Assembly: GCA_964368785.1 (NCBI GenBank)
Contig: CAYJCW010000003.1
Coordinates: 71,704-135,703, forward strand
Source of the DNA: an uncultured Candidatus Saccharibacteria bacterium
GTDB lineage: Bacteria > Patescibacteriota > Saccharimonadia > Saccharimonadales > Saccharimonadaceae
Length of the DNA: 64,000 nucleotides
Reading direction: 5' to 3'
Below are positions 1 through 20,640 of the stretch, piece after piece. How positions within the stretch are numbered: the stretch's first letter is position 1; each line of letters begins with the position of its first letter. The translations under genes and the position numbers were made by a program. The notes beneath the pieces are model-generated. The model saw only the letters and a list, made by a program, of their open reading frames with translations. It was not told where the DNA came from and made no database searches.

Positions 1-10
1 CGCGAAGTTA

Positions 11-39
11 TTGACATAAGCACGCTTATTTGATAGTAT
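11..39 (+). promoter_or_regulatory. sigma70-type promoter (TTGACA-17-TAGTAT, extended -10 TG)
   Basis: TTGACA at 11-16, TG at 31-32, TAGTAT at 34-39. Confidence 0.75.
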
Positions 40-45
40 TACGGT

Positions 46-97
46 ATAAGCCCTCGCACGGAGCAGGATGTTCCTACCGCGAGGACTTTCTTTTTTG
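46..97 (+). ncRNA. putative small hairpin RNA with U-tail (candidate RNA antitoxin)
   Basis: Starts 6 nt after -10; stems CCTCG/CGAGG, CGG/CCG and AGGA/TCCT, followed by a T-run; no ORF. Confidence 0.55.
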
Positions 98-136
98 TCA
101 TTCATATTTCTGACATCTGAGTAGCTTCATGTAAAC

Positions 137-183: not shown

Positions 184-678
184 CTATCCTCCGATTCGTT
201 CTTTGACGTAGTCATGAAGTGATGTCTGTATTTCTTTAAACACAGCTCTTCCGTGACCACTGCCACCGATATGCCATCGCTTGATCTCTCGTATGTCGAA
301 TCCTTTCTCTCCACAATAGGCCTTGCCATCTTTGTAGTTGTAGATCGTTGCTATACCGTGTTCAGTTTCAACAATCCACTGTACATCCATCTTATTCTCA
401 GGCAGACGTGTGAATGGTTTGCCGTACACTGCCACGATATCTTCATAGCGTGCGAGGATGGAGCCGATTCCATGCGTACCGCTTATTACTTTCGCCATGT
501 CAGCATACTTTCGCTCATAGAGCCACTTTTTGTATGTACTGTAGTGCTCCATGATGTCCAAGATTACCTCACGGGAAAGATTGCTACACGCTTCGACTGC
601 TCGCACGTCGAACATATTCGTGACACCGCTGATGCGAACATCTTCGTATGCCTCGAAATCTTCTCGGGTTATGTCCAT
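184..678 (-). CDS. DUF5049-like N-terminal domain fused to an unknown domain, 164 aa
   Basis: SGVTNMFDV resembles the GxTNMFD motif of DUF5049 mobile-element proteins; AAGGAG RBS upstream. Confidence 0.6.
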   Translation of the reverse strand: MDITREDFEAYEDVRISGVTNMFDVRAVEACSNLSREVILDIMEHYSTYKKWLYERKYADMAKVISGTHGIGSILARYEDIVAVYGKPFTRLPENKMDVQWIVETEHGIATIYNYKDGKAYCGEKGFDIREIKRWHIGGSGHGRAVFKEIQTSLHDYVKERIGG

Positions 679-883: not shown

Positions 884-3800
884 CTAGCTATTTACTGCCG
901 CGAGTAGATCGGCATAAGAACTTACTGCGCTATACTTCACTGTATCATCGCTAATCTTCTCAAAATGCCGCCTGGCACATTCGATCTTGGCTTTTTCGAC
1001 TTCACGAAGCTGCATCTCCATAGTATCGCCCTTTGTCTCCGCCACAAAGTAGATGTGTTTCACAGTACCTTCGCGGAACGTAATTGCCCAGTCGGGGTTA
1101 TATTTGCCCATCGGGGTGTTGATATAGAAGCCGCTTGGTAACTTGACATACAGCTCAACATTCTCAGCAATGTCCATCTCGCCAGCAAGATCACGCTCAA
1201 CACTCGAGTCGTAACGGACTTTATCAAAGAGGTGCTTCTTGGCATCAATCACGTTCCTGCCGTACTCACCGGAGATGGTTGGGTCGACAAAGATCTCCTC
1301 AGCATTCCACTCTTCGTCCAGCTTGTCATAGGTAATATGTTCAATGATCGTACTCGCTTTTTGCTCATCGATAAGTTTAATGGCTTCACGAATAAACTCT
1401 TCGGGGTTCACTCGAAACAGATTAAACACCACAGGCTCGATACGACCTAGGATTGTTGCCACTGTTCGCCTAGTTAGCTTCGTCATTGTGGCAATCTCGC
1501 CCACGAGGTCAAATGTCACGCCTCGTGATGCCACTTCTTCCAGTGTTACTTCACGCCCAAGAAGCTTTTTCATTTCTGGGCTGGTATCTTGTTTGGTAGA
1601 TTTTAGGTAGCCCTCGGTGATGACGACTTTGGTGGTTGCTACTCGTAGCTTCAAGTTCAGCGCCTTTATGCACGATTCTATCAGCTGCGATTCATCGAAC
1701 TGCACAGTATAGTAGGTTTTGGCGTTGATACGACTCCATAGCTCCTTAAACTCACGGCTGGCAAACTTCTCTTGGTCGAGGTTTAGCGTCGCTTTTGCGC
1801 GAGCATCGGACACCATCGGCTTCTTCTTCTTCTTCGGATCATAGACAGATTCTATCAGCAGCAGTGCGTTTTCAGCTTGTGTCGCTAGCTCGGGCGATAC
1901 AGCAGCGAGTACATCACCAATTTTCTCAGCACGAAGCTCTGGCGACCATTCGCTAAAGTCGTCGCTAATCTGGTCACCAGCCACGATACCACTACCGACA
2001 AGTCCAGCATAAATCAACGCAGCCTTGCTGATATCCAGCGCCACTTCTTCGCCAGCGTTATTCGTCCACACCTGCCCATTAAACAAATCTGGCGTAATCG
2101 CTTTCGGGCGATTCTTTATCACCTCGTAGAACTCATCCTGCAACGCCTTGGCAAATTCGTCGTAGCTTTCATTGGCAATCACCGTTAGTGCGTTTACTTC
2201 ATGCACGCCATGCGCGCCCAGCACATCAGCATCCATGCGCTCACCGTCACGATTCACGCTTAGTCGCAGTCCTCGGCCAATCTCTTGGCGCTTCTTGATG
2301 TCACCACTACTCATACGCAGCGTGCATATTTGGAATACATTCGGATTATCCCAACCTTCACGCAGTGCCGAGTGGCTAAAGACAAACCGCACCGGCTCTT
2401 CATGGCTCAGTAGTCGCTCCTTGTTCTTCATGATCAAGTCGTACGCGCCAGCATCAGACGATTCCGATTCGCCACGCTTTACTTCACTGTTTACCGCACG
2501 ACCTTTTTTATCTACCGAAAAGTACCCTGCATGAATACGATGCGCCTCATCACGTTGCAGGAACGTGCGGTATTCTTCGTCTTCACCGAATGGTAGCTGC
2601 TCAAAGAATCGGTCGAGTGCATTAGTATACTCTTCCTCAAACACCTTTGCATAGATGCCTTTTTGGTCATCGCTCTCGTAGTCTTTATACTTCGCCACTT
2701 CGTCGATAAAGAAGAGAGACAGCACCTTGATGCCTTTTTTGTATAGTTCACGTTCTTTTTCGAGGTGGCTCATAATTGTCTCGCGAATTTGAATGCGACG
2801 AATATCGCTCTCACTGGTATCACCAACCACTTCGCCAGGAGCAAGGCGCAAACCACCCGTAAACTCCACGTAGCCATCCCGTGCGTTAATATCGGAAATC
2901 ACGAAGCCATCACGGTACGCCTCGATCTCGCCAGAATGGTCATAGATATTATCGCCATGGGCAAATGTCTTGACTTTCTTGCTTATGCCGCTGCTGGTCG
3001 CAGTATTGTGCTCAAATACCACCGTTGCCGACGGGCTTTTGTTGGGATACACATTGATACGCTGTAGGTATAGGTAGCCGTTGGTTGCTGTTGTGCCGTG
3101 TATCGCGATGCCTTTGACGGTAATCTTTTTGACCAACTGACGCTGGTAGGCGTCGACAGCATCCAGTCGATACACCATGTTGAAGTTTTCTCGGTGCGTC
3201 GCAGAGTAGTTGACGTAAAATAGTGGATTAAACTTGCCGAGGCTGTCGCGCGTTACATTCTTACCACCAGTGACACCAATGACACTTTGTGGCTCGTCCA
3301 CAATCACGATAGGGTTCACAGCAGCAATCACGTCGATAGGGCGACGAGAGCGGAAGCTGTCGAGTTTCATATAGATACGCCGTGCGTCCTTGCCGCTGGC
3401 GTTAAACGCCTGCGTGTTGATAATCATGACGTTAATGCCAGGGTCATCGGCAAATTGCTCCAACTCGTTCAGTCGAGAGGAGTTGTAAACGAAGAATCGA
3501 CACGCCTTGCCGTATTCCTCGCGGAAATGATCGGCAGTCACCTGAAAGGTTTTTGCTACACCTTCGCGAATCGCCACACTCGGGACCACGATAATAAACT
3601 TACTCCAGCCATATCGAGCGTTCATCTCATACATCGTCTTGATATAGGTATAGGTTTTACCTGTACCTGTTTCCATCTCTACCGTAAATACCGGCTTTTC
3701 GACAGTTTGCTTGCTACCGTCGTCCCAGACTACTTTACTCGTCATCGTCTCGAGCCTGCTTGCTACAGGGGCAATGCCGTATTGTTTTTGCACAGCACGT

Positions 3801-4012
3801 AGGTTCTTTAGCAAATCTTCGGGACGCAAATGCACCTCTGGGTTTGCCCAGCCAGTTCGGGTCATGTCTATGGCAGTTGTCTGGTTGCTATTAGCAACAG
3901 CACCTTGATCTACAAGGAACTTGCGCGTCTCATTCGGCTGCCCCATAAACACATCGCACACTGCATTGGTAGCGTCTTCTTGGAACTTTTGATGTTTAAA
4001 ACGCAGTTTCAT
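884..4012 (-). CDS. res: Type III restriction enzyme, Res subunit
   Basis: VEMETGTGKT (motif I), IVDEPQS, SALREGWDNPNVFQIC, QEIGRGLRL; C-terminal YNPDWAI...VAETKG PD-(D/E)xK nuclease. Confidence 0.93.
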   Translation of the reverse strand: MKLRFKHQKFQEDATNAVCDVFMGQPNETRKFLVDQGAVANSNQTTAIDMTRTGWANPEVHLRPEDLLKNLRAVQKQYGIAPVASRLETMTSKVVWDDGSKQTVEKPVFTVEMETGTGKTYTYIKTMYEMNARYGWSKFIIVVPSVAIREGVAKTFQVTADHFREEYGKACRFFVYNSSRLNELEQFADDPGINVMIINTQAFNASGKDARRIYMKLDSFRSRRPIDVIAAVNPIVIVDEPQSVIGVTGGKNVTRDSLGKFNPLFYVNYSATHRENFNMVYRLDAVDAYQRQLVKKITVKGIAIHGTTATNGYLYLQRINVYPNKSPSATVVFEHNTATSSGISKKVKTFAHGDNIYDHSGEIEAYRDGFVISDINARDGYVEFTGGLRLAPGEVVGDTSESDIRRIQIRETIMSHLEKERELYKKGIKVLSLFFIDEVAKYKDYESDDQKGIYAKVFEEEYTNALDRFFEQLPFGEDEEYRTFLQRDEAHRIHAGYFSVDKKGRAVNSEVKRGESESSDAGAYDLIMKNKERLLSHEEPVRFVFSHSALREGWDNPNVFQICTLRMSSGDIKKRQEIGRGLRLSVNRDGERMDADVLGAHGVHEVNALTVIANESYDEFAKALQDEFYEVIKNRPKAITPDLFNGQVWTNNAGEEVALDISKAALIYAGLVGSGIVAGDQISDDFSEWSPELRAEKIGDVLAAVSPELATQAENALLLIESVYDPKKKKKPMVSDARAKATLNLDQEKFASREFKELWSRINAKTYYTVQFDESQLIESCIKALNLKLRVATTKVVITEGYLKSTKQDTSPEMKKLLGREVTLEEVASRGVTFDLVGEIATMTKLTRRTVATILGRIEPVVFNLFRVNPEEFIREAIKLIDEQKASTIIEHITYDKLDEEWNAEEIFVDPTISGEYGRNVIDAKKHLFDKVRYDSSVERDLAGEMDIAENVELYVKLPSGFYINTPMGKYNPDWAITFREGTVKHIYFVAETKGDTMEMQLREVEKAKIECARRHFEKISDDTVKYSAVSSYADLLAAVNS

Positions 4013-4016
4013 CTAG

Positions 4017-5915
4017 CTACACTACCTTCACCTTCGTATCAGGGCTAATGATGCGGAAATGCTCAGCGAGGTTGACCTTGGCTTGACTATCAGGGAATGA
4101 GGCTTCGCGGAATACGGCAGTTAGTGGGCGCATGGCGGCAATTGACTTGATGGTCGCTTCACTAATTTCGGGAGCAAAGCACGCCACGAGTCCCGACACT
4201 TCACCAAAGTAGTCGTATTTGTATACAACCCGGCCATCTAGCTGTACTGTTTCGAGTGGGCGATTGAGTTCAAGCGCAGACTGGGTTAATACGCCGAACA
4301 GGAGGTCGAGATCGCTACGATCTTCACGCACGTTATCTACCAAACTATCGAGCATCGATTGCTGCACGTCGGCAGCTGGGCGATAGACATCTTTGTGGTT
4401 GGTGTCGTCGATACGCAGGGCGCGGAAGCCATAGTCAACTTTGGCATCGGGGTGTTCGCTGGCAATCTTGTCGCCAGCCCGACGGATGCGCTCACGAGAG
4501 ATTTCGGGGATGGTTTTGTAGCCAGCTTTGAATGCTTCTGACTTTTCGTCGGTTTCTTCGGGCAGCTGCACCATGATCCATTTGCGGTTGCCGCCGTCTT
4601 CAACATTGAGTTGCATGACAGCGTGGGCGGTGGTGGCGGAGCCGGAGAAGAAGTCGAGCGTGATATAGTTATCTGTATCGAGCATTCTCATCATCTTAGA
4701 AATCATCTCGACCGGCTTCGGGAAGTCAAAAAGCTCAGAATTACCGAACAAATTCTTGGCTACAGTGCGTGCATTTTGATAATTTAGCTCTTTCTCATCC
4801 CAAACACTTTTAACCTTGGATAGTTTCTGAGTTCCATCAGTACTTTCTAGAGGGTCTATTCTGTATACATCGTATTCTTTCTTGCCATCTCTGGTGATTT
4901 CTTTTGCCACAAGCTCAGTGATTCGAGCGGACGATGTATCTTTACCCCAAGTCCATCGGCTTTCTTCTCCAGTTGGTCGCTTAGGTAGGACTTCAATCGT
5001 ATGGCTTTCGTCTTGCTCGATACTAACAGATAAATCTAATGGATTCACAAAAAATGAGAAATACATGTTCGGCCTATCTGAACGCTTCCAGTCACCGCCT
5101 CGTTTTCTCAACCCAAGCAATCTAGCTTTTCTACCGTCTGCTGTCGTATAATTGAACTCTGATTCGTCCTCTCGAGCAAGTCCGTTTAAGGACATCACAC
5201 CTTCCGCAGTCCTTGTGTAGCATAAAACATATTCGTGAACGCTTGATATGCCATAAGGTTCCTGCGAGCCACGAGGATTACTTATCGGAATAATTTGTCC
5301 TACATAATTAGATTCACTAAATACTTCGTCACATAGCTTCTTGAGATTTGCTTGCTCATCTTCTCCGATACTGATAAATATCACGCCATCTTCACTCAAA
5401 AGGTTCCGCGCTAGCTTGAGCCGTGGGTACATCATGCTTAGCCAGTCGCTGTGGTAGCGGCCGTTGCTTTTTTCGTTCTTTTTGAACTGAATATTGCCGT
5501 CTTCGTCACGGTAGTCGGTGTCGTCGTCGTACTGTTCGGTCGTCGCCTTGAAGTTGTCGTGGTACACAAAGTCTTTGCCGGTGTTGTATGGCGGGTCGAT
5601 GTAAATCATCTTGACCTTGCCGAGGTAGCTTTCTTGCAAAAGCTTGAGTGCGTCGAGGTTGTCGCCTTCGATAAAGAGGTTTTCGGTGGTATCCCAACTT
5701 TTGCTAGCATCGACATCAGGACGGAGGGTTTTGTTGATCGGTGCGCCAGCTTCGATGATGCTTTTGCGTTTGCCGACCCAAGTGAAGTCATACGCCTCAT
5801 CGTGGTCGTCGAGCTTATCTAGCGCCTCACCGAGACTCTCGAAGAATTCACGGCTTCCACGCCAGTCTACTTTGTCTAAATCTACCCGTTCTATGCCACT
5901 GCCGTCGCTCATCAA
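4017..5915 (-). CDS. mod: Type III R-M N6-adenine methyltransferase, Mod subunit
   Basis: FIEGDNLDALKLL, IYIDPPYNTG, DFFSGSATTAHAV; directly upstream of res. Confidence 0.93.
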   Translation of the reverse strand: MMSDGSGIERVDLDKVDWRGSREFFESLGEALDKLDDHDEAYDFTWVGKRKSIIEAGAPINKTLRPDVDASKSWDTTENLFIEGDNLDALKLLQESYLGKVKMIYIDPPYNTGKDFVYHDNFKATTEQYDDDTDYRDEDGNIQFKKNEKSNGRYHSDWLSMMYPRLKLARNLLSEDGVIFISIGEDEQANLKKLCDEVFSESNYVGQIIPISNPRGSQEPYGISSVHEYVLCYTRTAEGVMSLNGLAREDESEFNYTTADGRKARLLGLRKRGGDWKRSDRPNMYFSFFVNPLDLSVSIEQDESHTIEVLPKRPTGEESRWTWGKDTSSARITELVAKEITRDGKKEYDVYRIDPLESTDGTQKLSKVKSVWDEKELNYQNARTVAKNLFGNSELFDFPKPVEMISKMMRMLDTDNYITLDFFSGSATTAHAVMQLNVEDGGNRKWIMVQLPEETDEKSEAFKAGYKTIPEISRERIRRAGDKIASEHPDAKVDYGFRALRIDDTNHKDVYRPAADVQQSMLDSLVDNVREDRSDLDLLFGVLTQSALELNRPLETVQLDGRVVYKYDYFGEVSGLVACFAPEISEATIKSIAAMRPLTAVFREASFPDSQAKVNLAEHFRIISPDTKVKVV

Positions 5916-5975
5916 TTATCCCCTCACTTCTATTCACATTTTATGATGTAATCTGTGGCTATTATACCATGCAGC

Positions 5976-8900
5976 TTACGATTCTTCCTCTGTATACAGT
6001 GCGTTAAAGTTGGCCCAGTACGACTTTTCTGCATTGCTCTGTCGTCCATTTGCGAAAGCCGGAAGCGCATTGAAGATATCCTGCTTAGCTTGTGTATTGC
6101 TCCAGCTTTGCATCCTAGATAGCAGGTCGTCAAAATCCTTACGGTGATGACGATAATTAGGCTGAGCCGTTTGGAATGAATTGACAACAATCTGTATCAT
6201 CTGGGCATCCTGTGTCTCTGTAAGCAAACTAAACAGGAGATAGATATAGTCATTCTTCGGAGTGTCCTGAAATAGTGGGTAATAGTCGTTAATTACCTGG
6301 AAGGCAATACGATGCGCGGATGAGATAGATCGGCCAGGTTCTCTCAGCCACGCCAGTAGCTCAGTTGCTATGCGACGCCTGTCAGTATCTTCTAGGAACT
6401 GTAACTGAACGAGGAAGTTATAGCTAATGTCAGACTGCTCAGGATCGCCACTCATAATAAGAGACTTGATTTGCTCGAGTGCAGTCTTTAATTCTGCCGT
6501 ATCCGACTTAAGTAGTCTTGATGCAATGAAATCAAAGTACTTCGATTTAAATGTATAGCTGTTCGCTCCAGCTTTGTCGAGCAACTTGGCAAGCGTCTCC
6601 TTGCGAGCAGGCACCTTACTGAGAGTAGCTATGAAGTCAATGTCAAAATAATTATTTACTGGCACCCGAGATATCAGGTCATCAATGATAGCCTTCTTCT
6701 CTTCATCTGCGGCATTGTCATAAATATAGCGCAGAACAGTCGCGGACACAGAAAGCTGCGGTAGCACCGTCGGAAGTATAAGCCTGATAAATCGTTCTCT
6801 CGTAGGCTCATTCCAATAGTCAAGCGGTCGCTGAATCTGCGAGAGATCTGTAAAACTTTGGAAATACGACTTTATACTATCACGAACTGCCTGCTTGTCG
6901 GTCTCGTTTACATATTGGCGAATCCAATAGAGTGCTACTATTTGATCTGAGCGCTCCTCCCATTGTGAGGTGTACGGAATGGATTTAATAATATCGTTTG
7001 CTATCTCCGTTAGGGGTGCAGCTGCGCTCTTCATATCATTTGAAAAAGTTTTAGTAAGTGGCGTAATCGCTTCAACTATCTTTATTTTATTGTCACCATA
7101 TCTCGATGATGTAGCAGTATCCTGCTTGAGTAGTTCCGATATTCTGGAAACGATATCGATAACGAGACCGTGGTCTGAAACATATTCTTTGAAGGCTGCC
7201 ATGGTAGCAAGCTTTGTAGCAAGATTGTCAAAGTCAAACGATTTTATATAATCAGTAACCAGCTTCTCGGTAATGAAAGACTCCTGGCTCTTGTTGGTTG
7301 TGAATATCGCAAGCGTCTCTTCGTCCAATCCATACTTAGTCTCAAGGATTGAGCGGATATTCGTCATTTGCTGCTTGTTTAATACCGAGGGATTATCTTT
7401 GAAATTAGCAATAACACCACGCCTCAGAGTTGTAATAGTATTGCCAGTGTCTAGTGCTGAGATATACCGTTCGACAATATTACTCCTAAGCGAGCGATTG
7501 AGGTTTTTATTTGCTAATAGGCTAAATATATGGTCGAGCGTAAAGCCCTCATATTTCTGCCACAGTTCTGTATCGATTGTTTTTGCGACTTCGTTGACGT
7601 ACCGCCTACTGCTGATGTTGATACCGAGGCTGGCAATCACCTCAAGTTGCGTGTTTACGACATTGATTAAGATATTTTCTTGACCCGTATATTTCATCAC
7701 CAAGTCTGTCATAAACTCGACAAGCTTATCATGAGCCTCATTGTTCGCGGCTTCAATAGCCTCCGTGACATTTGCGGCAACGAACGCATTCTTTATATCG
7801 TTCGCGTTACTCAAGCCTCGCGAATCAGCTGGGTCTTTGAAATAAATGAAAGGCTCCGCATCATCAACAGTAATACGGCTTGTCTTCCGCATGAAATTCG
7901 TGAAGTCAGTAGCCCCACCAGTCTCACTGCCACCATTAGTAATATTTTCTGGACTGTGCCACGTCTCTTTGAGAGATTCGTATGCCTTAGGGAACTTCTG
8001 CCGGATGATAAGTACCTTTGCAAGATATGCTATGTTGCTATTTATAATATCCTTTACACCCGTGCCTTGGGTACTGATGACCATGGCTATAAGGTTATTT
8101 ATAAACTGAATTATCTCACGTGGATTTCTGGAAAAGGCAGCATTGATGACAAGAATGACATCTTCGTCATTGAGCTGCTTGCCAATCTCGCCAGTTTCCT
8201 TAAGTAAGGACTTAGTGTATTCCTCAAGGTCAGTATTGATGAAGTCTGGTATCCAGATAATGAGATTAAATATCTTCCTTAGATATTCTGCGGCACCGAA
8301 AGAATCGTCTTGGTCGTGACGCACTCCGTAAAAGTATTTTTCGACCTGAACCTCGATTGCGGTCGGATCACAAGGAACCAAGAATACGATATCACCGCTA
8401 CTACCGCTGTACATAAATGTCTTGATTGTAGAGAGCATGGTTATCGCAACGTCACCCTGTACACGATCTATATTGTCAAAGACAATAACAAGCTTCTTGT
8501 CTACGCGGCTAAGTATGTCGATAAATTTCTGCTCAAACTGCTCGGGGGAGTTTAACCGATCTTCTTGGCTAATCTCGGTTACAAGTTCTATACGTTGCTC
8601 TTGCTTGGCGAAGAAAGACTCGGTCACTATTTTTAGGACACTTTCCAGTATCGGCTTACCGAATGCTCCAAGGAAGGCAATACTCGTCACGATAGTAGTC
8701 AGCTGGAGTATAAACTGCGACGCAACATTATTAGGATAAAAAGTTACTAAAACGGATGCGCCAATAAGCAACAGGACAGTCACTATAAGTGGTAGATACT
8801 TCTTTAGATATGACAGTACCTTTGCTTTAGTTGTGAGTTCAGTGGTAGATTTTTCCTTCTTGGCTACCGACACGGTTTTAGAAGAATACAAGTTAACTAA

Positions 8901-9233
8901 AATGTCATCTGGTAGGTCGTATTTTTGACTTCGTAGATATTCAACAAGTTTGATAAGAAATGTCCGACGCAGCGTGTCTTCCTGGTACTTCCACGCGTCA
9001 AATATAAAAACAGGCATATCGAGATCGGGGTCGTTCTGCACCATTTCGACAACCGTGCTTTTACCCGTACCCCATGCGCCGAACAAACCGATAGTATGAG
9101 GTGATGTGCTATCTTTTAAGATCTTCTTCAAAGCTGGTGCAATCGTAGCGTGGTAGAAGCCCTCATAACTAACCTCGGACTTTTTCCGAGGCTCATCTTT
9201 CAAAAAGATAAACTCAGGTGGTTTCTTTTTCAT
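5976..9233 (-). CDS. KAP-family P-loop NTPase with two TM helices and a long helical C-terminus, 1085 aa
   Basis: TIGLFGAWGTGKS Walker A, FDAWKY, two hydrophobic helices, LVIVFDNIDR Walker B, YLRKIF and NPREI motifs. Confidence 0.85.
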   Translation of the reverse strand: MKKKPPEFIFLKDEPRKKSEVSYEGFYHATIAPALKKILKDSTSPHTIGLFGAWGTGKSTVVEMVQNDPDLDMPVFIFDAWKYQEDTLRRTFLIKLVEYLRSQKYDLPDDILVNLYSSKTVSVAKKEKSTTELTTKAKVLSYLKKYLPLIVTVLLLIGASVLVTFYPNNVASQFILQLTTIVTSIAFLGAFGKPILESVLKIVTESFFAKQEQRIELVTEISQEDRLNSPEQFEQKFIDILSRVDKKLVIVFDNIDRVQGDVAITMLSTIKTFMYSGSSGDIVFLVPCDPTAIEVQVEKYFYGVRHDQDDSFGAAEYLRKIFNLIIWIPDFINTDLEEYTKSLLKETGEIGKQLNDEDVILVINAAFSRNPREIIQFINNLIAMVISTQGTGVKDIINSNIAYLAKVLIIRQKFPKAYESLKETWHSPENITNGGSETGGATDFTNFMRKTSRITVDDAEPFIYFKDPADSRGLSNANDIKNAFVAANVTEAIEAANNEAHDKLVEFMTDLVMKYTGQENILINVVNTQLEVIASLGINISSRRYVNEVAKTIDTELWQKYEGFTLDHIFSLLANKNLNRSLRSNIVERYISALDTGNTITTLRRGVIANFKDNPSVLNKQQMTNIRSILETKYGLDEETLAIFTTNKSQESFITEKLVTDYIKSFDFDNLATKLATMAAFKEYVSDHGLVIDIVSRISELLKQDTATSSRYGDNKIKIVEAITPLTKTFSNDMKSAAAPLTEIANDIIKSIPYTSQWEERSDQIVALYWIRQYVNETDKQAVRDSIKSYFQSFTDLSQIQRPLDYWNEPTRERFIRLILPTVLPQLSVSATVLRYIYDNAADEEKKAIIDDLISRVPVNNYFDIDFIATLSKVPARKETLAKLLDKAGANSYTFKSKYFDFIASRLLKSDTAELKTALEQIKSLIMSGDPEQSDISYNFLVQLQFLEDTDRRRIATELLAWLREPGRSISSAHRIAFQVINDYYPLFQDTPKNDYIYLLFSLLTETQDAQMIQIVVNSFQTAQPNYRHHRKDFDDLLSRMQSWSNTQAKQDIFNALPAFANGRQSNAEKSYWANFNALYTEEES

Positions 9234-9294
9234 AATTTCCCTCGAACCAACCCACCCGTTGATACGCTAAATCTCATTATAGCAAGAAATACAA

Positions 9295-9939
9295 CTATTT
9301 CAGCAGTTTCTCAAGAGTGTACCGCTCTCGTGCCAGCTCCTGTTTTCTCGCCACACTCGGTTCGGCTGCAATCTTCTTATTAATATTTTCGATTTGCTTT
9401 TGAATCTTTTCTCGTTGCTTGGTGTCCTGTACCGCTTCGGCAATCGGTTTGGTAGGGTTAAAAGTTGGGGCGATCTGCTGTAAGAAGCTGACGTAGATAC
9501 CCTTGACAGATCTGCCCGATAGGGTGAGAGCGGGTGTGCTCCACGACGTTTCATAATACTGGATGATTTTACTTTTCTGAGCGTCTTTATAGCTAGGTTC
9601 TTTGTATGATATGGCGTACTTCGTCTCGCGATTCGAACGGACGATGCCGAACAGGATTGGTCGGGGAATAATACTATCGATCGTTTCGAGGACTTTTTTA
9701 CTTAGCTCTCTGCCTTTGAGTGATATTTCAATAACGTCCAGCTCGTCGTATGTGCCGCCCGATATATTCATAGTTCGCGGTGCAATCACCGCACGGAGTG
9801 TGACTTTTTCTATCTCATCGACAAAGAGCTGTCGCAAGCTATAGTCAACCGCACCAACCTTGTAGAACTTCTCCTTAGGGATGCTCACGTTCGTCAAAGC
9901 GGAGTCAGGGAGGTTAACTATGTTCACTATGGTCACCAT
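9295..9939 (-). CDS. DUF4391-family protein
   Basis: Size about 214 aa, IPKEKFY-like N-terminus, coiled-coil C-terminus (IENINKKIAAEPSVARKQEL); typical position between SNF2 helicase and mod. Confidence 0.75.
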   Translation of the reverse strand: MVTIVNIVNLPDSALTNVSIPKEKFYKVGAVDYSLRQLFVDEIEKVTLRAVIAPRTMNISGGTYDELDVIEISLKGRELSKKVLETIDSIIPRPILFGIVRSNRETKYAISYKEPSYKDAQKSKIIQYYETSWSTPALTLSGRSVKGIYVSFLQQIAPTFNPTKPIAEAVQDTKQREKIQKQIENINKKIAAEPSVARKQELARERYTLEKLLK

Positions 9940-11695
9940 ATTTCTCTCGTATTTTTTGACTGATCATTGCTCGTGGAATCTCGTACAGCTTTACGATCTC
10001 ACTCCGTAACCACTTCGTCCGTGCTTCGAGCGACTCAAGATTCCAGGTTTCACAGTTATCGGCAATCCATCTAGTTGTGTAGTTTTCTGCGCCACCGATA
10101 CCATCACGCTTGTTGAGGTTACCAGCAAAGGTAAGATTCTTGTTTGGCGTAGGTGGATAGCCAACAATAGCGATATTGGCAAGTTTGCCATAAAACCGCT
10201 GATTAATTGTTTCCCAGTCTTCGCCTAGCTCTTCCTTCCATGCATCATCAAGCCTAAAGCCGTAAATTGCTTTTGGCATGATGTGAGCAACCTTTTGATG
10301 GAGAGAGCGAGTGTTTCCATCGTGTGCAATATCGAGTTCACATAACAAGACCCTTGCCTTGCTATCGGAAATGTCTTCATTAGTAATAGCAAATTCAATC
10401 CTCTCATCAGTAACATTGCGAGATTTACTTGGGTCGCCCGCACCTTCCATGTACCAGAGATAGGCATCGTAAAAGGAGCTCATCTCGTAGTCTTTGTAGC
10501 ACTTGTATACTGCATTTGCCGTACTGTTAATGAGCTTGAAGCCTCCAGTGCCGCCAATCTCATCACGCCTCTGCTGTTTTCCAACCACCGTTAGTATATT
10601 GCGGAAATCGTTCCTCGTCAGCTCGCCTTGCTTGTAATACTCCAATAGTTGGATAAAGAATGACAGATGTGACACTGCGACACTGTGCGTAGACGATTCG
10701 CTCTTACCTTGCATGTCTTCGTCGAACACGCTCAACATCTTGTGCTTGGTGATATCATCTTTCCATAGTAGATAGATATAGTCGTCTAGAATTGACGTGA
10801 TGTCCGACCATACTGCACGCAACTGGTCTAGTGACTGGTCTGGCGTGACACTGCTGTAATATTCCTTGAACTTCTCGTAGGTATTCTTTTCGTTGATAAC
10901 TTTGTCGTTGTACTTAATGGTGAGGAACACTCGGAAGAACCCGGTGATAAGTTGCGCACCAACACCAACAAATTCGCCACTTCTTGTTAGTGACTTTTCA
11001 ATCTTGAGCCAGTAGTCGTGATACACCATATTGCGTGCTTCTTCGGAATTGAGCATCAGAGCGAAGTTGCGTATCTTATCTCCATCGGTGAGCGGCTCAC
11101 CTGTAGCGTTGATATTCTCGAACACTACTTGTGGATTGTCGTCTTCTGGCGTGAGCAGAATTGATATCATGTCGATACGTTCGAGCACATCAAGATAGGG
11201 GTCGATTTTATCGAGGTTGCTTATCTTACCTACGAAGAAGGTATACATATCAAAGAGCTTCGACTGCTCGTCAACTGGTACAGTTTTACGTCGTAATATT
11301 CTATCAAAGGTCTCTCTGTCAGATGTTGCTCCGCGCAAGATAACCTTTAGCTCGCCATCATCCTCGTTATACAAAAATGTTTTACCTAGCTCTTCAGCAG
11401 TGTACTTCCACGATTTGCGAGAATCGTCGAGTAAGGCATGGTAGCAAGCGGTAATGAATAATAGTGTCGTAGTGAGTCGTTGCTGACCGTCAATTACTAC
11501 ACGATTTATATCGTCCTGAAAGAATACGATGCTGCCGAAGTAATGGCGCTTCGAATTTGATACTGTATCGTGGATACTCTCCCAGAAAGCCAGACCCTGC
11601 ATAGGCTTCCATGCGTACGGTCGCTGAAAGTCTGGAATCTTGAAGAATTGCGACTCTGCGATGAAGCTATGGAGATTGGTCTGCACTGCTCGCAT
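9914..11695 (-). CDS. DUF262 + DUF1524-like protein (GmrSD/SspE-like)
   Basis: IPDFQRPYAW, VIDGQQRLTT, FENINATGEPLT; C-terminal HIMP...ANI region resembles a diverged DUF1524 HNH domain. Confidence 0.85.
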   Translation of the reverse strand: MRAVQTNLHSFIAESQFFKIPDFQRPYAWKPMQGLAFWESIHDTVSNSKRHYFGSIVFFQDDINRVVIDGQQRLTTTLLFITACYHALLDDSRKSWKYTAEELGKTFLYNEDDGELKVILRGATSDRETFDRILRRKTVPVDEQSKLFDMYTFFVGKISNLDKIDPYLDVLERIDMISILLTPEDDNPQVVFENINATGEPLTDGDKIRNFALMLNSEEARNMVYHDYWLKIEKSLTRSGEFVGVGAQLITGFFRVFLTIKYNDKVINEKNTYEKFKEYYSSVTPDQSLDQLRAVWSDITSILDDYIYLLWKDDITKHKMLSVFDEDMQGKSESSTHSVAVSHLSFFIQLLEYYKQGELTRNDFRNILTVVGKQQRRDEIGGTGGFKLINSTANAVYKCYKDYEMSSFYDAYLWYMEGAGDPSKSRNVTDERIEFAITNEDISDSKARVLLCELDIAHDGNTRSLHQKVAHIMPKAIYGFRLDDAWKEELGEDWETINQRFYGKLANIAIVGYPPTPNKNLTFAGNLNKRDGIGGAENYTTRWIADNCETWNLESLEARTKWLRSEIVKLYEIPRAMISQKIREKYGDHSEHS

Positions 11696-11703
11696 AATAG
11701 TTA

Positions 11704-14700
11704 TTAGTCCCTAATCACCAGGAAGTTAATAAGTTCAAAATCATCCAAGCCCGATACATCATTACTAAGCACGGTCGTTTCACCAATTCTGAAAATGCTG
11801 TCGATGTCTTTTTCGTTCTTGACGGTAATAATAGACTGAATAGCATTCGTCAGAAGATCGGTATATCTCGACATATCTTTGCCACTGTTCGTTTCTGCGT
11901 TAAACTTAGCAACCATATCACTATCTGGCGTATCAAAGCCCTTGCCGAGATGACGAAGCTTATTAAGCAGCTCTTTCGACTGCAAGTGATTGACAGCCAC
12001 ACGACCATCGTCAGCGATGTATACCAGGTAGAATGGATGCAAGCGATTCTGTCTATCAATATTTACGCCTTGGTTAACATTCTTGAGCACGAATATCACG
12101 CCAGGTGGCGTATCCTCGCTAGCGCGAGCAACAGCATGAATGCCAAACGGAAGTGCGTCGGCCTCACCGTACTTTCCCAGTAACTCTTGGAGATCAAGAT
12201 GGAACTCGTTCAATCCTAGATCCATTATAGAAACTCCACCGCTCATGTCTTCTAGATCAACCACCTCATTTTGGATCTTTTCAAGTTGACTCTTGCGATA
12301 CTCAAGCTCCGCATTGTCAGCTTCATCAATTGGATTATCGTTACCTGTGGCGGTAAGGTTTACCATACGCATGCGACCCTCGACACGCGCTTTGAGGTTG
12401 ATGTATTCGTCGAGCGAAATATTTGGCCAAAAGTTTGTTAGCTGAATGACATTATTTGTTGAGCCAATACGATCGACACGTCCAAAGCGTTGAATAATTC
12501 GCACGGGATTCCAGTGAATGTCGTAGTTTATAAGATAGTCACAGTCTTGAAGGTTCTGACCCTCCGAGATACAGTCGGTGCCAAAGAGGATGTCTATTTC
12601 GCCAGGGTTTTCATCAAACAGCATATCGCGGCCTTTTGATTTGGGGGAGAATAGCGTCAGTATCGTATTGAAATCTGGCTTGACCGTACGCGTGGTTGGA
12701 ATGGTCATTGCAGGGTTGCGCGTACCGGTCACAACGGCAGAATCAAGACCGAACTCATTCTTAATCTTACTCGCAAGTTCTCCATAGAGGTAATCTGCCG
12801 TATCGGCAAAGGCAGTAAATACGAGTACTTTTTTGTTGTTGCCGTTGAGTGGGTTGTGTATTTTGTCACGAATTATTTCGAGGAGCCGCTGCAGCTTGAG
12901 GTCGTGCTCGTCGGCAATTGGCGTGATCATTGCAAGTAGTTCATTGAGTGTCGCCTTGTCCTCTTCGAGCTTGGCACGCCAGCTTACGAGATCGATATCC
13001 GCGAAATCAATTTTAAGATCTTTGCCGACTGTCCATTCCGCTTCTTCTGGGTCTTCGTCGTACTCGATCGTATTGATATTTGACTGATTTACTGTCGTGC
13101 TCGTTGCGCGCCCCTGCTCGAATCGATCAATATCATCAGTAATACCGTCAATCAGATCATACATACGCTCGGAGGTCTTACGGAAGGCGTATACACTACT
13201 TTCGAGGCGCTTTAGCATATTTGTTATCATCAGGACATTACGACCGGTTTCACGGTTTGCCCAGCTACGACCCTTGGCACTTTCGAGGTCAACATATTTG
13301 CCGAGCTTTGATGGGAATACGTATCGCATCGGAGTGTATACATCCATATTGAGAGAGTCTATGCGATTAAAAATCTCGTCGAAAGTAACGCCCTCGATAT
13401 CAGTCAATTCTGGGCGCTCAGAGATAGGCTTAAGGCGTGTCGGGAATTTACCAACGTCTGATAGCGAATAATAGCGTTCGATATGTTTACGTGAACGTGC
13501 AATCGTTACACTGTCGAGCAGTTCGAAAAAGTCGAAGTGTAGCATGTCGAGAAGTGCCGATGTGGTTCGACTTTCTGGCGGAAGTTCATTCCAAGCCTTG
13601 AATGCGCTGCTCGCATCACGAAAAATCTTTTCAACTGGATTCTCGGTGCCTAGCGATGAATCGAGATGAGTTGAGTCGCCCTCTGCTGCGAGCATTAGCT
13701 GGTTACGTAGATCTGTGAATCTATTGTTGACAGGTGTCGCTGAAAGCATTAATACCTTTGTCTTTACGCCATCACGGATAATGCGATTCATGAGTTTCTG
13801 ATAGCGATTCTCATACTCATCGTCTTCCTTGCGATGAGTACTTAACTCACCGTTACGGAAATTGTGCGACTCGTCGATCACAACTAGGTCATAGTTGCCC
13901 CAGTTGAGGTTTTGTAGATCGATACCATTGCTGTCGCCACGCTCTCGACTCATATCAGTATGAAATAGGACATCATAGCGCAAACGATCTTCTGCTACCG
14001 GATTGTTTTTGTAGTTGCCCTTGAAGGTATTCCAGTTGTCTTTTAGCCGCTTCGGAACAAGTACAAGCACATTCTTGTTACGTGATTCGTAATATTTAAT
14101 TACACCAAGCGCAGAGAATGTCTTACCGAGACCTACGGAGTCAGCGAGAATACAACCATTGTGTTTTTCGAGCTTCGAAATACAACCAATAACGGCATCT
14201 TTTTGGAAGTCGTATAGCTTGCTCCAGATTACAGAATTCTTAAACCCGGTGGCTTCGTTTGGTAGGTAGTCGGCATTGAGGTCTTCAAGAAATTCGCTAA
14301 AGATATTGTACAGCGCAGCAAAATAGATAAGCTCTGGTGAATTCTCTTTGTATGCGGCTGTGATGTTTTCGAGTACTGATTCTGTAACGTCGGCAATCTT
14401 TTCGTCGTCATTCCATACAGACTCGAACGTGTCTATGAAATGTTGCGCCTGCGGTGAATAAACTTTCGTCGTGGTAGAGTATGCGTTGTGGCCTCTATCC
14501 GCTCCTAAGTCGGCCGTGGTGAAATTCATAAGAGGAGAATAGGCAGCGTCTTGTTCGCTGTTTTGTACGGACATAAAAGGCATCATTTGTTCGCCTGATA
14601 CGTTTGACCTAAACTTTACCTTCCGACGAATCCATTCAGCACACTCTTTGGCAATGGCTTGCTGGTTTAGCTCATTGCGAAGTTTTATCTCGAAGTCAGT

Positions 14701-14970
14701 ACCATACAAAGAGCGTTCGGCATTGAGACGTGGGATATAGAACTCCCGAGACTCTCGAGGTGCACGCTCGTTTGTAAATACTTCACCCGTAAACAGAAAA
14801 TTCAATTCGTCGACCTGCTCTAGCTCTCGCTTAAGCAACTGGTAAGCATAGATAGAAAAGCTGGCAGCAGCAATATCTACCTTACTGCCGGCACGAATTG
14901 TCATTTTAAGATCATCAATAACTCTGTTTGAAATATTATCGAAGAAGACTGGGTTGTTAGTTTGGTTCAT
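11704..14970 (-). CDS. SNF2-family helicase with N-terminal PLD-like domain, type III R-M associated
   Basis: LADSVGLGKT, VIDESHNFRN, LSATPVNN, GTDCISEGQNLQDC, QRFGRVDRIGS; N-terminal AASFSIYAY...FRSN. Confidence 0.9.
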   Translation of the reverse strand: MNQTNNPVFFDNISNRVIDDLKMTIRAGSKVDIAAASFSIYAYQLLKRELEQVDELNFLFTGEVFTNERAPRESREFYIPRLNAERSLYGTDFEIKLRNELNQQAIAKECAEWIRRKVKFRSNVSGEQMMPFMSVQNSEQDAAYSPLMNFTTADLGADRGHNAYSTTTKVYSPQAQHFIDTFESVWNDDEKIADVTESVLENITAAYKENSPELIYFAALYNIFSEFLEDLNADYLPNEATGFKNSVIWSKLYDFQKDAVIGCISKLEKHNGCILADSVGLGKTFSALGVIKYYESRNKNVLVLVPKRLKDNWNTFKGNYKNNPVAEDRLRYDVLFHTDMSRERGDSNGIDLQNLNWGNYDLVVIDESHNFRNGELSTHRKEDDEYENRYQKLMNRIIRDGVKTKVLMLSATPVNNRFTDLRNQLMLAAEGDSTHLDSSLGTENPVEKIFRDASSAFKAWNELPPESRTTSALLDMLHFDFFELLDSVTIARSRKHIERYYSLSDVGKFPTRLKPISERPELTDIEGVTFDEIFNRIDSLNMDVYTPMRYVFPSKLGKYVDLESAKGRSWANRETGRNVLMITNMLKRLESSVYAFRKTSERMYDLIDGITDDIDRFEQGRATSTTVNQSNINTIEYDEDPEEAEWTVGKDLKIDFADIDLVSWRAKLEEDKATLNELLAMITPIADEHDLKLQRLLEIIRDKIHNPLNGNNKKVLVFTAFADTADYLYGELASKIKNEFGLDSAVVTGTRNPAMTIPTTRTVKPDFNTILTLFSPKSKGRDMLFDENPGEIDILFGTDCISEGQNLQDCDYLINYDIHWNPVRIIQRFGRVDRIGSTNNVIQLTNFWPNISLDEYINLKARVEGRMRMVNLTATGNDNPIDEADNAELEYRKSQLEKIQNEVVDLEDMSGGVSIMDLGLNEFHLDLQELLGKYGEADALPFGIHAVARASEDTPPGVIFVLKNVNQGVNIDRQNRLHPFYLVYIADDGRVAVNHLQSKELLNKLRHLGKGFDTPDSDMVAKFNAETNSGKDMSRYTDLLTNAIQSIITVKNEKDIDSIFRIGETTVLSNDVSGLDDFELINFLVIRD

Positions 14971-15019
14971 CTGTGCATATTATACCCTGTTTTACAGATA
15001 AAAATAATCCGACGAACAA

Positions 15020-15083
15020 AGAAAAAAAGATTCATGCTTCCTCGCAGGCGAGTGGGGCATGAATCTTCCTGACTTGTATTGTA
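15020..15083 (-). ncRNA. putative small hairpin RNA or terminator with its own extended -10 promoter
   Basis: On the minus strand, TGcTACAAT (-10 at 15078-15083) then AAGATTCATGC/GCATGAATCTT 11-bp stem with inner CTCG/CGAG stem and a T-run. Confidence 0.45.
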
Positions 15084-15091
15084 GCAGATTG

Positions 15092-15508
15092 TTATTTTTC
15101 GTTTACAAACGCCTGTAGCGTTACCATCTCTTTAGTCATTTGGTCAGGCACATTTCGGAGATCAATTTCAATCCATGAGTCCATAACACCGTGTTCTTGG
15201 AGGTCGATCTTCTCGCCGCTAAAACAATCGTCGTCGAACCATAGGAATGGCTGCGAGAAATCAATAGCTTCGGTTTTCTTCAGGCTCCACGTTACCGGTT
15301 TGAACTCCTCAAGCCATGTGCGCAGATCTTGATGAGATGCTCGATTGAGATATTCAATCGCGTGAGTAGGGTCACCATTCATACAATGTGTTGTTAGCCA
15401 GTACACATCAAAGTGTTCGACTGCATACTGTATAAATTCAGCCGCACCAATCGCGAGGTTCTCTTCATTGGCGAGAAGTACGCCATCGATATCTAAATAA
15501 ATGTTCAT
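15092..15508 (-). CDS. HAD-superfamily domain protein (Swiss-Army-Knife RNA-repair-type HAD-like)
   Basis: MNIYLDIDGVL, WLTT, LWFDDD; start placed at ATG 15508, which overlaps the upstream stop. Confidence 0.75.
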   Translation of the reverse strand: MNIYLDIDGVLLANEENLAIGAAEFIQYAVEHFDVYWLTTHCMNGDPTHAIEYLNRASHQDLRTWLEEFKPVTWSLKKTEAIDFSQPFLWFDDDCFSGEKIDLQEHGVMDSWIEIDLRNVPDQMTKEMVTLQAFVNEK

Positions 15509-15774
15509 CAGTCTTTCATAGCCTCCTTTAGCCAATCTCCCTCGTCTTCGATAGGATATAACACCTTCTTACCGTCTCGTCGCCACTGATGTCTGCAATC
15601 GTTGCAGGAGTAATCTGGCTCGCTATCGTCAACCAGACAACCTCCAAGAATAACCCTGCCATCTTCAAGGTCTTTTTCGAGTTTCTTATCAAAAGCAGGC
15701 ATACCCATGAGTACAAGAGCAACGTGCGTTGATTTGCACGTCGGACAACTGAAGGATGAAGCATTACTTGTCAT
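15508..15774 (-). CDS. small Zn-ribbon protein, 88 aa
   Basis: CPTC...GGC...YSCNDC; overlaps both neighbouring genes. Confidence 0.65.
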   Translation of the reverse strand: MTSNASSFSCPTCKSTHVALVLMGMPAFDKKLEKDLEDGRVILGGCLVDDSEPDYSCNDCRHQWRRDGKKVLYPIEDEGDWLKEAMKD

Positions 15775-15931
15775 GGTTGATCGTCGGCAGAATTACGGTT
15801 ATCAGCTCGTCAGTCTCTTGCTGCGACATAGCTTGTTTCTTTGGCGGAGCAGCCTTCTTACTGCGCTTCTTTGCCGCACCGATGAGCACCAGTACTCCAA
15901 TAGTAGCGCCAAAAGCAATAAGCTCGATCAC
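15764..15931 (-). CDS. small single-TM protein, 55 aa (not in the ORF track)
   Basis: GTG start overlaps the DUF2779 stop, GAGGTG RBS; MIELIAFGATIGVLVLIGAAKKRSKKAAPPKKQAMSQQETDELITVILPTINHDK. Confidence 0.65.
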   Translation of the reverse strand: MIELIAFGATIGVLVLIGAAKKRSKKAAPPKKQAMSQQETDELITVILPTINHDK

Positions 15932-17421
15932 GATCGCACCTCAATTAGTTCTTTGAGCTTCTCGTAAATCGCTACCATCGCATACGTATCTAATCCACAA
16001 TACTCTCGCAGGTCAGCGAGTATCTGGTCTTTGTCGGGTCGCGTACCGTCAACAATTACTTCTCGCCACGAACGGCTGGCAGTCGAGCCTTCTTGAATAC
16101 CAAGAGTCTTATAGGACAGCTCAGGGCATAGTAGCGGCAGCACCTTCTTGATTGAATACTTACCCTTGAGCCGTTTATCGAGATACATTCGCTTGCTAAA
16201 TACGTCAGCGAGATCAACCGTACGCTTGTTGAGGTCTTCAAAAAACGGAGCATGCTCTGGATAGAGCTTGGCGTACTCTTTATGGCGTGAGCACTCGAAG
16301 GTCTTATTCCACACGATAATTGAGCCTATACTGCCAATATCTTGCTTCAGGTGGGCGATGACCCCCTCGGCAGGGTTTGTGTTCGTGTCGTGAAGATACT
16401 CGGTATGCGTCAGCGTACCGTCCTCTTGCATGATATGTAGCGAATATTGGAAGACAACCTGTTGGTACGGAAAAGTATGATCAAAAGGCGGAAAGATATG
16501 GTTGATCGACTCGTAATCAAGGAAATAGGCTGGAAACTCAATATCTCCAAGAAATGCCCGAATAGCTTCTTTATCGATAATAATCTCATCAAGCTTCGTC
16601 ACCCGTACTTGGTCTTGCTGATGAGCTTGTAGCTTGGTTGATTCTGGAATGTCGACGATGAGCTTTACTTCGTCATCTTCTAGGCTTCCTATCAGCTTGT
16701 CCGTGCCAGCGCCTTTATTAGAGGCAAGGTCGTAGATGCTATATTCAGGAATATCTGGATGAAGCTTATGGAAGATATCTCGGTATTCGCTCGCAGCACC
16801 AAGCCCAACGTAGCGGAGCGAGTCACTTGGCATTGTATCACTCTCGGCTGTCTTGGCGGCTTCTCGCATCTTCCCAGGGGCATTCAGAACTTCTTTGTTT
16901 ACTTTGTCGGTAACATCAGTAAACATCACGATATCTTCGAGCTTAATGTCACCGCTACGAAGATACTCTTTGTTAGCGTGCAGTACTTGGGCAGTTCGCA
17001 CAGGAAAGCCACTCCACTCGATAACCGTCTTCTGAAACGCAAGGTCGCAGATATGCTCTTTGTCTGGTGACGTAGTAGCTTTAATTTCTGTCAGCGTATA
17101 GGCATCGCCATCACTCGTAATGGCGTCGGCAATACACAGGAAGCCATCATAGAGGAAGGCTGCTTGTAAAATGGTGTCGACACCTTGCTTGAGCAGTGCT
17201 TTCGTTTCGTCCGCCCATTCTTGCATGTCTGCATAGTCGTTACGATCGAGACGTATTGCTTCGGGGAATATATGCTCGGCTAGCTTCTCGAACTCTCGCC
17301 CCTCGTCGATGATAGCCTGTGAGTTTTCGTCAGGTATTGGTAGAAAGTCTGGATCGTGTTTGCGAAGCCAGAGCCATGCTGGGTGTTTGAGGTAGGTTAT
17401 GTAGTCGGTTTTGGAAATCAT
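15928..17421 (-). CDS. DUF2779 domain protein (PD-(D/E)xK-like N-terminus plus RNase H-like domain)
   Basis: CIADAI...EIKAT; AYFLDYES, PYQQVVFQYSLH, YSIKKVLP, YCGLDTYAM. Confidence 0.8.
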   Translation of the reverse strand: MISKTDYITYLKHPAWLWLRKHDPDFLPIPDENSQAIIDEGREFEKLAEHIFPEAIRLDRNDYADMQEWADETKALLKQGVDTILQAAFLYDGFLCIADAITSDGDAYTLTEIKATTSPDKEHICDLAFQKTVIEWSGFPVRTAQVLHANKEYLRSGDIKLEDIVMFTDVTDKVNKEVLNAPGKMREAAKTAESDTMPSDSLRYVGLGAASEYRDIFHKLHPDIPEYSIYDLASNKGAGTDKLIGSLEDDEVKLIVDIPESTKLQAHQQDQVRVTKLDEIIIDKEAIRAFLGDIEFPAYFLDYESINHIFPPFDHTFPYQQVVFQYSLHIMQEDGTLTHTEYLHDTNTNPAEGVIAHLKQDIGSIGSIIVWNKTFECSRHKEYAKLYPEHAPFFEDLNKRTVDLADVFSKRMYLDKRLKGKYSIKKVLPLLCPELSYKTLGIQEGSTASRSWREVIVDGTRPDKDQILADLREYCGLDTYAMVAIYEKLKELIEVRS

Positions 17422-17441
17422 ATTTTACTCCTCAGAATGCC

Positions 17442-19736: not shown

Positions 19737-19999
19737 TCTAAATCATATCGCGCGTAACGCAGTTATTAATCCCACTTGCTTTTCTTCGCTTATAGGTCAA
19801 TTATACAATGACTGCTAGGGTTTGACACGTAATCATCTCAGGTAAACAGTCGAAAAACACAAGAGGAGGCGATAAGAGGGGTCTTATTACAAAAGGACTC
19901 CTCTTATTCTCGTAATCTACAGAGATGACTGTGGCATCACCCCTGTTAAACTAGGGAGCTTCTACCTCTCAATTAAAATAATCCCAGTGAGTCCAATAT

Positions 20000-20052
20000 C
20001 TTAGGAACTAGTGCCGTAAGGCGTGAAGGTTCAAGTCCTTTCATCCGCACCA
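20000..20052 (+). tRNA. 3' half of tRNA-Leu(TAG), probable att site and not a complete tRNA
   Basis: CTTAGGA anticodon loop, ACTAG, long variable arm, GGTTCAAGTCC T-arm, TCATCCGCACCA end; 5' half absent. Confidence 0.85.
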
Positions 20053-20345
20053 TAAGAGCCCTACTGCAACTCTGGCCCTCTTGCGGCCCCTCGGGCAGCA
20101 GTAGCGCCCCTAAGAACTCATCCAGCAGGCCACCGGCAACGGTGGCCTGCGTTGTTGTTGCCCCTACGCCTCCGTGGCGCTCTGCCTCTGCCACCGCCAG
20201 TTCGCGGGCCAGCCCAGCATCTCCTGTCTCCTCGAGTGCCACCCATCCGCGCTGGGTCGCCAGCAGCTCCCGCATCGGTGTGTTCAGCTCGTCACCAACA
20301 ACTTCCTCGTTCACCACGTAGACATGCCTAAAGATGGCTTGGTTG

Positions 20346-20622: not shown

Positions 20623-20640
20623 GGTTCCAGTATAGCAGAA

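Follow-up and report, generated by a model that had tools for sequence, protein, structure and literature searches.

The start of the window (the whole stretch of DNA analysed here, 64,000 nucleotides long) carries the end of a gene for a small toxin-like nuclease, and the last codons of this gene include a predicted promoter directed at a structured RNA, whose gene follows directly on the same strand. Such a combination of toxin and RNA recurs in hundreds of relatives. From the comparison of about 150 related loci, mostly from Candidatus Saccharibacteria, we are highly confident that the nuclease and the small RNA (sRNA) form a conserved and functionally coupled module, which most likely represents an undescribed kind of RNA-neutralised toxin-antitoxin (TA, defence) module. 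The RNA is probably a direct-binding antitoxin, in a type III-like module with an inverted gene order and a new toxin fold. Transcription from A46, the toxicity of the protein, the RNA-protein interaction and the role in defence are what we infer from these sequence comparisons.

Frame 1 of the window begins with the last 10 codons of the toxin 1 gene (positions 1-33, + strand), which read R E V I D I S T L I and terminate with the TGA at 31-33, as the original prediction had described. The upstream flank, expected to hold a coding sequence ending at this stop, is present on a 9.6-kb metagenome contig (L001) that overlaps the window start and was located via the 164-aa protein encoded at 184-678 (-). 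This contig contains a complete ORF of 134 aa that terminates exactly at window position 33, and the remainder of the gene, left of the window, lies at L001:5602-6006 (minus strand in the locus). The product had been predicted to be another nuclease toxin, and it is indeed a homologue of such toxins: CdiA_C (PF18451, E = 1.5e-13) is the sole Pfam family that toxin 1 matches. The PD-(D/E)XK signature (SPD...ExK) is intact in toxin 1 and common to the second toxin of the window, encoded at 20712-21101 (-), with which toxin 1 shares about 32% identity. The comparison of the homologues reveals that the residues H20, E21, D50, E59, K61, N74, Q81 and R91 are invariant. An AlphaFold (AF2) model of a homologue 92% identical to toxin 1 (pLDDT 89) displays a single significant match in the PDB, the structure 4g6v_A of CdiA-CT(1026b) (E = 8.8e-6, TM 0.67), to which a profile-to-PDB sequence search also points weakly. 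The tRNase CdiA-CT of Burkholderia pseudomallei 1026b cleaves tRNA-Ala in its acceptor stem, and it needs an immunity partner, the protein CdiI, which blocks it by binding its active site (PMC9086364). By homology, toxin 1 is classified as a small stand-alone CdiA_C / PD-(D/E)XK nuclease homologue, predicted to be tRNase-like. Both toxins of the window are basic, with pI values of 9.8 and 10.2. In about 29 loci, -10-like boxes (TAAAAT, TATACT, TACAAT) are found 7-12 nt before the toxin ATG, without a Shine-Dalgarno sequence; the own promoter of toxin 1 (L001:6007-6030) consists of an extended -10 only, 7 nt ahead of the ATG. Because the -10 box sits so close to the ATG, the toxin mRNAs are probably leaderless and would have no ribosome-binding site (RBS) to mask.

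The window-start site itself reads as a near-consensus promoter of the sigma-70 type. Its -35 box TTGACA (11-16, +) is supplied by the Ile-Asp-Ile codons ATT GAC ATA, and its extended -10 TGaTAGTAT (31-39, +) takes the TG from the stop codon TGA, the hexamer TAGTAT being located at 34-39. The spacer is 17 nt, so both boxes and their spacing agree with what had been predicted, and the scan score is 10/12 plus the TG. The full pattern TTGACA-N14-TGnTANNNT occurs at two sites in the 64-kb window versus 0.03 expected from shuffles; the only other one, TTGACA...TGCTACAAT at 61516-61544 (+), is located upstream of the secY region. From this geometry, transcription is predicted to start at A46 (45-47, +), 7 nt past the -10, with the outer stem of the RNA 2 nt further on. 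Nearly all homologues display TTGACA, a 17-nt spacer and TAnnAT, usually with the TG, and their -10 ends 19-22 nt ahead of the RNA core (CGG), so that the start site would fall at the foot of the hairpin.

The codon usage of these genes argues that this promoter is selected at the DNA level, beyond the conservation of the IDI motif in the protein, since synonymous codons are fixed and the box is kept despite changes of the C-terminus or of the frame. Within the C-terminal I-D-I, 25 of 25 genes use ATT for Ile, versus 44% of their other Ile codons (p = 3.7e-9), and 25 of 28 use GAC for Asp, versus 48% elsewhere in those genes (p = 2.7e-5). TGA serves as the stop codon in 23 of 32 cases. In L006 the stop codon TAG forms part of the -10, and in L010 a frame shift prolongs the ORF through the promoter, which is kept. 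TTGAC is read in a different frame in L024, in L027 and in the clade whose proteins end with ILTIK, and the promoter is located past the stop codon in the members from Clostridia. The second RNA copy of L014 and the orphan RNA of L053 have their own promoter each.

Downstream of the promoter, a multi-stem RNA of about 50 nt with a U-tail had been predicted. The sequence from 44 to 98 folds as a two-stem hairpin (-17.9 kcal/mol, z = -2.4), followed by the U-tract TTTCTTTTTT (87-96, +) that completes an intrinsic terminator. The hairpin (48-88, +), delimited by folding, by alignment and by the covariance model R1, is referred to as the class A RNA. It consists of an outer stem (48-57/79-88) and an inner stem (60-64/70-74), separated by the internal loops AC (58-59) on the 5' side and UACC (75-78) on the 3' side, with the apical loop AGGAU at 65-69. 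The U-tract terminator is predicted to end both the sRNA and the toxin mRNA; the distance from the stop codon to the terminator is only about 65 nt, and a convergent gene follows. At 142-174 follows a second terminator hairpin, GCGGCA...TGCCGC, which carries T-runs on either strand and is bidirectional; it would serve this convergent gene of 164 aa and can be a back-stop on the + strand.

The class A set contains 80 homologues of toxin 1, all small and stand-alone, and 27 loci that come almost all from MAGs of Candidatus Saccharibacteria. Each element is composed of a variable outer stem, a near-invariant core and usually a T-run. The core sequence ACGGAGCAG(G/U)AUGUUCCUACC is near-invariant across proteins that are only about 50% identical. 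In an alignment of 26 sequences, the proposed structure (10-bp outer stem, 2/4-nt internal loop, 5-bp inner stem and 5-nt loop) is paired in 93% of cells versus 38-51% with partners slid, 8 pairs display compensatory changes and 0/500 shuffles match the observed covariation score; as for the other statistics of the module, these counts are taken among related sequences and thus overstate independence. RNAalifold gives essentially the same fold on this alignment. The covariance model recovers the window copy with 71.6 bits (E = 7e-16, positions 40-101) and no second class A copy in the 64-kb window. Three loci from MAGs labelled as Actinobacteria (Coriobacteriales/Eggerthellaceae; L042, L058, L071) carry class A RNAs with GC-rich outer stems and without a T-run after the hairpin. 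An exchange of class A between an Actinobacteria host and its epibiont is conceivable, because Saccharibacteria live as epibionts of Actinobacteria.

The architecture of the window start had been likened to that at 20581-20725, where a protein ends with RKIIDIL; the likeness holds for the design, and the RNA belongs to a different class with two hairpins. Toxin 2 (20712-21101, -; 129 aa) matches CdiA_C with E = 2.9e-18, its -35 box TTGACA is located at 20720-20725 (-), and it is followed by two class B hairpins at 20648-20685 (-) and 20582-20619 (-), both bearing U-tails. More than 244 homologues of toxin 2 were detected, from which 78 loci were fetched. The class B RNA displays an outer stem AAGACG.../...CGUCUU and a 3-bp inner stem around the loop ACUGWAYUGW; it is 92% paired, 11 of its 12 pairs are compensatory, and it often occurs, as in the window (20582-20685), in two tandem copies. 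A third protein clade, with members from Endomicrobia, Elusimicrobia, Clostridia and other Saccharibacteria, carries the class C core CCACUGCUGGAUAGCGGAGG, and minor classes are also present besides A, B and C. RNA class and protein clade agree on a neighbour-joining tree; L030 and L035 depart from this only in appearance, since each carries an additional orphan class A RNA behind the hairpin that belongs to another toxin. Across 239 kb of class B/C loci, the class A model yields one match. When 1.84 billion representative proteins were searched with a profile, 1,414 clusters were recovered at E <= 1e-3, among them 698 at E <= 1e-10, and nearly all of the best 150 of the 1,414 clusters have a length of 95-180 aa. 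Individual loci display other arrangements: two tandem toxins from different clades with one RNA apiece (L004:4001-5100), two class A RNAs of which the second is promoter-bearing (L014:4395-4553), and, shortly before the start of a class C-type toxin, a weak class A-like match on the other strand (L132:1317-1378, -).

The RNA and the toxin are found together in nearly all cases. A recognisable RNA is located downstream in 26 of the 27 class A loci found through the protein, the exception (L028) being ambiguous, and a hairpin RNA accompanies about 107 of the 108 unique full-length toxin ORFs, of which 93 were classed automatically and 14 of the other 15 show variant hairpins on inspection. A DNA-pattern scan for the class A core detected about 38 real copies, with a toxin immediately upstream in all but five; of these five, one lies at a contig end, one has a degenerate remnant of the toxin and three are orphans with a promoter-like remnant. 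Orphan RNAs are present in L053, L065 and L069, besides the extra copies in L030 and L035. The RNA is kept beside disrupted toxins in L022, L050 and L073, and it is duplicated in L014, L085, L097 and the second copy of the window. The locus L073 (8510-9010, -) belongs to a 39-kb viral contig of IMG/VR, on which the toxin is apparently frameshifted and the promoter and RNA are intact. As this is the sole real class A match in IMG/VR, the idea that phages carry orphan RNAs as anti-defence was rejected; class C has no match in IMG/VR. Orphan RNAs and dead toxins that retain their RNA represent the asymmetry to be expected if the RNA is an antitoxin.

Among the genomes compared, no conserved protein partner is found next to the toxin. 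One module copy is located between ftsZ and a TetR gene and another among unrelated genes; in some genomes the module stands among housekeeping rather than defence genes. Toxin 1 is flanked by two paralogous genes, the convergent gene of 164 aa (184-678, -) and a gene of 166 aa (L001:6257-6757, + in the locus), whose products share 32% identity over about 115 aa and display a weak N-terminal match to DUF5049. They were rejected as partners of the module, being absent beside it at every other locus. The two modules of the window stand on either side of a 19-kb defence island (884-19736, -). This island encodes the type III restriction proteins Res (884-4012) and Mod (4017-5915), a KAP NTPase (5976-9233), DUF4391 (9295-9939), GmrSD (9914-11695), an SNF2/ResIII helicase (11704-14970), DUF2779 (15928-17421) and nSTAND3+Mrr_cat (17442-19736), all on the minus strand. 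It adjoins the core genes hisS, tig, rpoBC, fusA, tuf and secY, from 21 kb onward. At the border of the island, the sequence GGTTCAAGTCCTTTCATCCGCACCA (20028-20052, +), which occurs once in the window, resembles a tRNA T-arm, 3' acceptor strand and CCA; neither ARAGORN nor Rfam calls a tRNA or tmRNA at this site, which may be the remnant of an integration site. An AT-rich imperfect inverted repeat of about 110 nt (20333-20458) is located between the class B RNAs and a GC-rich ORF (19973-20317), and it has only spurious matches to Rfam miRNA precursors. Elsewhere, tRNA genes are directly beside several modules (L003:3836-3918 and 4486-4559; L077:1293-1374; L020), a position that is consistent with an insertion of the modules at tRNA hot spots.

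From these observations we propose a module of two parts, a basic stand-alone PD-(D/E)XK nuclease of ~130 aa, probably translated from a leaderless mRNA, and a structured RNA of roughly 50 nt immediately downstream of the toxin on the same strand. The RNA would have two sources: the 3' end of each toxin mRNA, and its own near-consensus promoter in the last codons of the toxin, which would supply an excess. Because each toxin mRNA carries one copy and the internal promoter adds more, the RNA would outnumber the toxin at all times. The same stoichiometric logic is achieved in ToxIN by an upstream repeat array and a leaky terminator. The RNA would bind its cognate nuclease directly and hold it inactive, in the manner of a type III antitoxin. 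If its supply drops, for example by transcription shut-off in phage infection or by loss of the locus, the nuclease would be freed and would cut tRNA or other RNA, resulting in cell arrest.

Some points stand against this reading of the RNA as an antitoxin. A covariation of the outer stem is also expected of a plain terminator, and the architecture (downstream, single unit, no processed array) is unlike that of every characterised type III system. The relatedness of the sequences behind the statistics and the housekeeping surroundings of the module in some genomes also count against it. Among the alternatives, it is rather unlikely that the complex is the working unit, with the RNA as a required scaffold, an activator or a bait attacked by phages. 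In favour of such a cofactor or sensor ribonucleoprotein are again the co-occurrence of RNA and protein and the congruence with the clades, and the invariant loops suggest a specific contact with the protein; however, a nuclease of a toxin family that has no other immunity factor would need inhibition, and the orphan RNAs and the disrupted toxins retaining their RNA fit an antidote better. We give little credence to a non-toxic RNA-processing enzyme encoded beside its substrate or product RNA, with a housekeeping or mobile-element function. PD-(D/E)XK enzymes have many roles and some copies are located among core genes, but the distribution is patchy and multi-copy, the genes are often disrupted, both a defence island and a viral contig carry the module, and its closest relatives are toxins.

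A type I-like control, in which the sRNA represses the synthesis of the toxin by pairing with its mRNA, appears quite improbable. Type I systems likewise use small RNA antitoxins, encoded next to the toxin genes or overlapping them; against this, the RNA is encoded on the same strand as the toxin and is therefore not antisense. In addition, duplexes of the sRNA with the 5' region of the toxin are energetically no more favourable than those of shuffled RNA (mean z = -0.22, 29 loci), the probably leaderless mRNA, with its -10 box 7-12 nt before the ATG, would offer no RBS to mask, and the conserved bases are located in the loops of a stable hairpin. Least credible of all is a plain terminator behind an incidental promoter that comes from the conserved I-D-I peptide, because, although a hairpin with a U-tract is an intrinsic terminator and the IDI motif is conserved in the protein, a terminator does not keep its internal and apical loops invariant beside proteins that share about 50% identity, the synonymous positions are fixed as ATT GAC, the -35 box is in another frame or past the stop codon in other clades, and the second RNA copy (L014) and an orphan (L053) bear promoters.

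With the RNA read as a direct-binding antitoxin, we tentatively extend the proposal to a large, unrecognised "RNA-immunity" superfamily composed of the stand-alone CdiA_C nucleases and their downstream hairpins. A tRNase domain of the polymorphic toxins, which in other settings depends on a protein for immunity, would be held in check here by an sRNA that mimics the substrate in the substrate site, with at least three to five co-diversifying RNA classes. Such a superfamily, which we regard as possible rather than probable, would have its main distribution in Saccharibacteria, which are ultra-small CPR bacteria, and in further uncultured lineages from gut, rumen, termite and wastewater. A mimicry of tRNA at the level of the sequence was rejected, the longest words in common with 38 tRNAs being no longer than for shuffled cores; the 9-mer GCUGGAUAG, common to class C and to the D-loop of tRNA-Arg, is within the shuffled range.

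The databases hold no counterpart of the module RNAs. At the gathering score, Rfam gives no match to them in the whole window; positions 1-250 give only noise at E <= 10, 19700-20750 give nothing real at permissive E-values, and 12 loci spanning the classes A to C give only tRNAs. A comparison with Rfam, including the abiF motif, had been suggested for the RNA at the window start; since the searches returned only tRNAs and noise and no Rfam family matches, the abiF identity was abandoned. PADLOC and NCBIfam have no family for the module proteins, and the sole match in PHROGs is to a family of phage head proteins, in their toxin-like C-terminal part. At the DNA level, E. coli genomes and phage collections hold nothing similar, and an exact 35-mer has no match among the GTDB representatives, which places the source genome outside that set. 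In literature searches, neither the core sequence nor a CdiA_C protein with an RNA partner was found.

If the RNA is the antidote, the module would represent a hitherto undescribed family of toxins that are neutralised by RNA and have a new fold. The wiring of the module would be inverted and very compact, with a promoter internal to the ORF, a stop codon within the -10 and one common terminator. A toxin domain of contact-dependent inhibition (CDI) would have been domesticated as an intracellular module with RNA immunity, and Saccharibacteria (CPR) and other uncultured lineages, for which few defence or addiction systems are known, would gain an additional one. Together with the about 1,400 protein clusters, the co-diversifying classes A, B and C are a natural data set for learning the code by which RNA and protein recognise each other, and the RNA classes could supply three or more new Rfam families.

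Three kinds of known systems are comparable to the module. The 3'UTR-derived sRNAs of the DapZ/MicL type have a promoter within the 3' end of the upstream CDS and share the terminator of the mRNA. They are Hfq-dependent regulators that base-pair with unrelated mRNAs, whereas the module RNA is linked to one protein family and co-diversifies with it.

CdiA-CT(1026b)/CdiI (PDB 4G6V) has in common with the module toxin the nuclease fold and the catalytic constellation Glu/Asp/Asp(Glu)/Lys, and it is a tRNase toxin that requires neutralisation in its producer. The module proteins contain the CdiA_C PD-(D/E)XK domain (PF18451, 4g6v_A), but as complete ORFs of 134 and 129 aa, that is, free-standing cytoplasmic proteins of about 130 aa and not the tip of a secreted CdiA of several thousand residues. 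No cdiI-like ORF is found downstream, and the RNA takes the position that an immunity gene would have.

The type III TA systems (ToxIN, CptIN, TenpIN; AbiF/RCd22, AvcID) combine a toxin, usually an RNase, with a cis-encoded structured RNA in excess, and they resemble the module by their cognate RNA-protein pairs, their defence contexts and their carriage by phages. In AbiF/RCd22, a structured RNA without repeats neutralises the toxin through direct binding (10.1101/2025.04.15.648962). The module likewise has an adjacent, toxin-specific structured RNA, which is supported by covariation and whose class tracks the clade. Its toxin, a homologue of a tRNase toxin with conserved catalytic residues, may be an endoribonuclease. 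In contrast to the upstream tandem repeat array with its terminator, processed by the toxin, the module RNA is downstream, with at most two copies per toxin and typically a single one, and has its own promoter. This promoter is located inside the toxin ORF, and the hairpin is bounded by its own promoter and terminator. The toxin is not of the ToxN/CptN/TenpN (AbiQ-like) kind, Pfam yielding CdiA_C only, and its CdiA_C / PD-(D/E)XK fold also differs from Abi_2 and from a deaminase. Taken together, the module fits best among the RNA-antitoxin systems, as a variant whose toxin fold is new and whose gene order is inverted.
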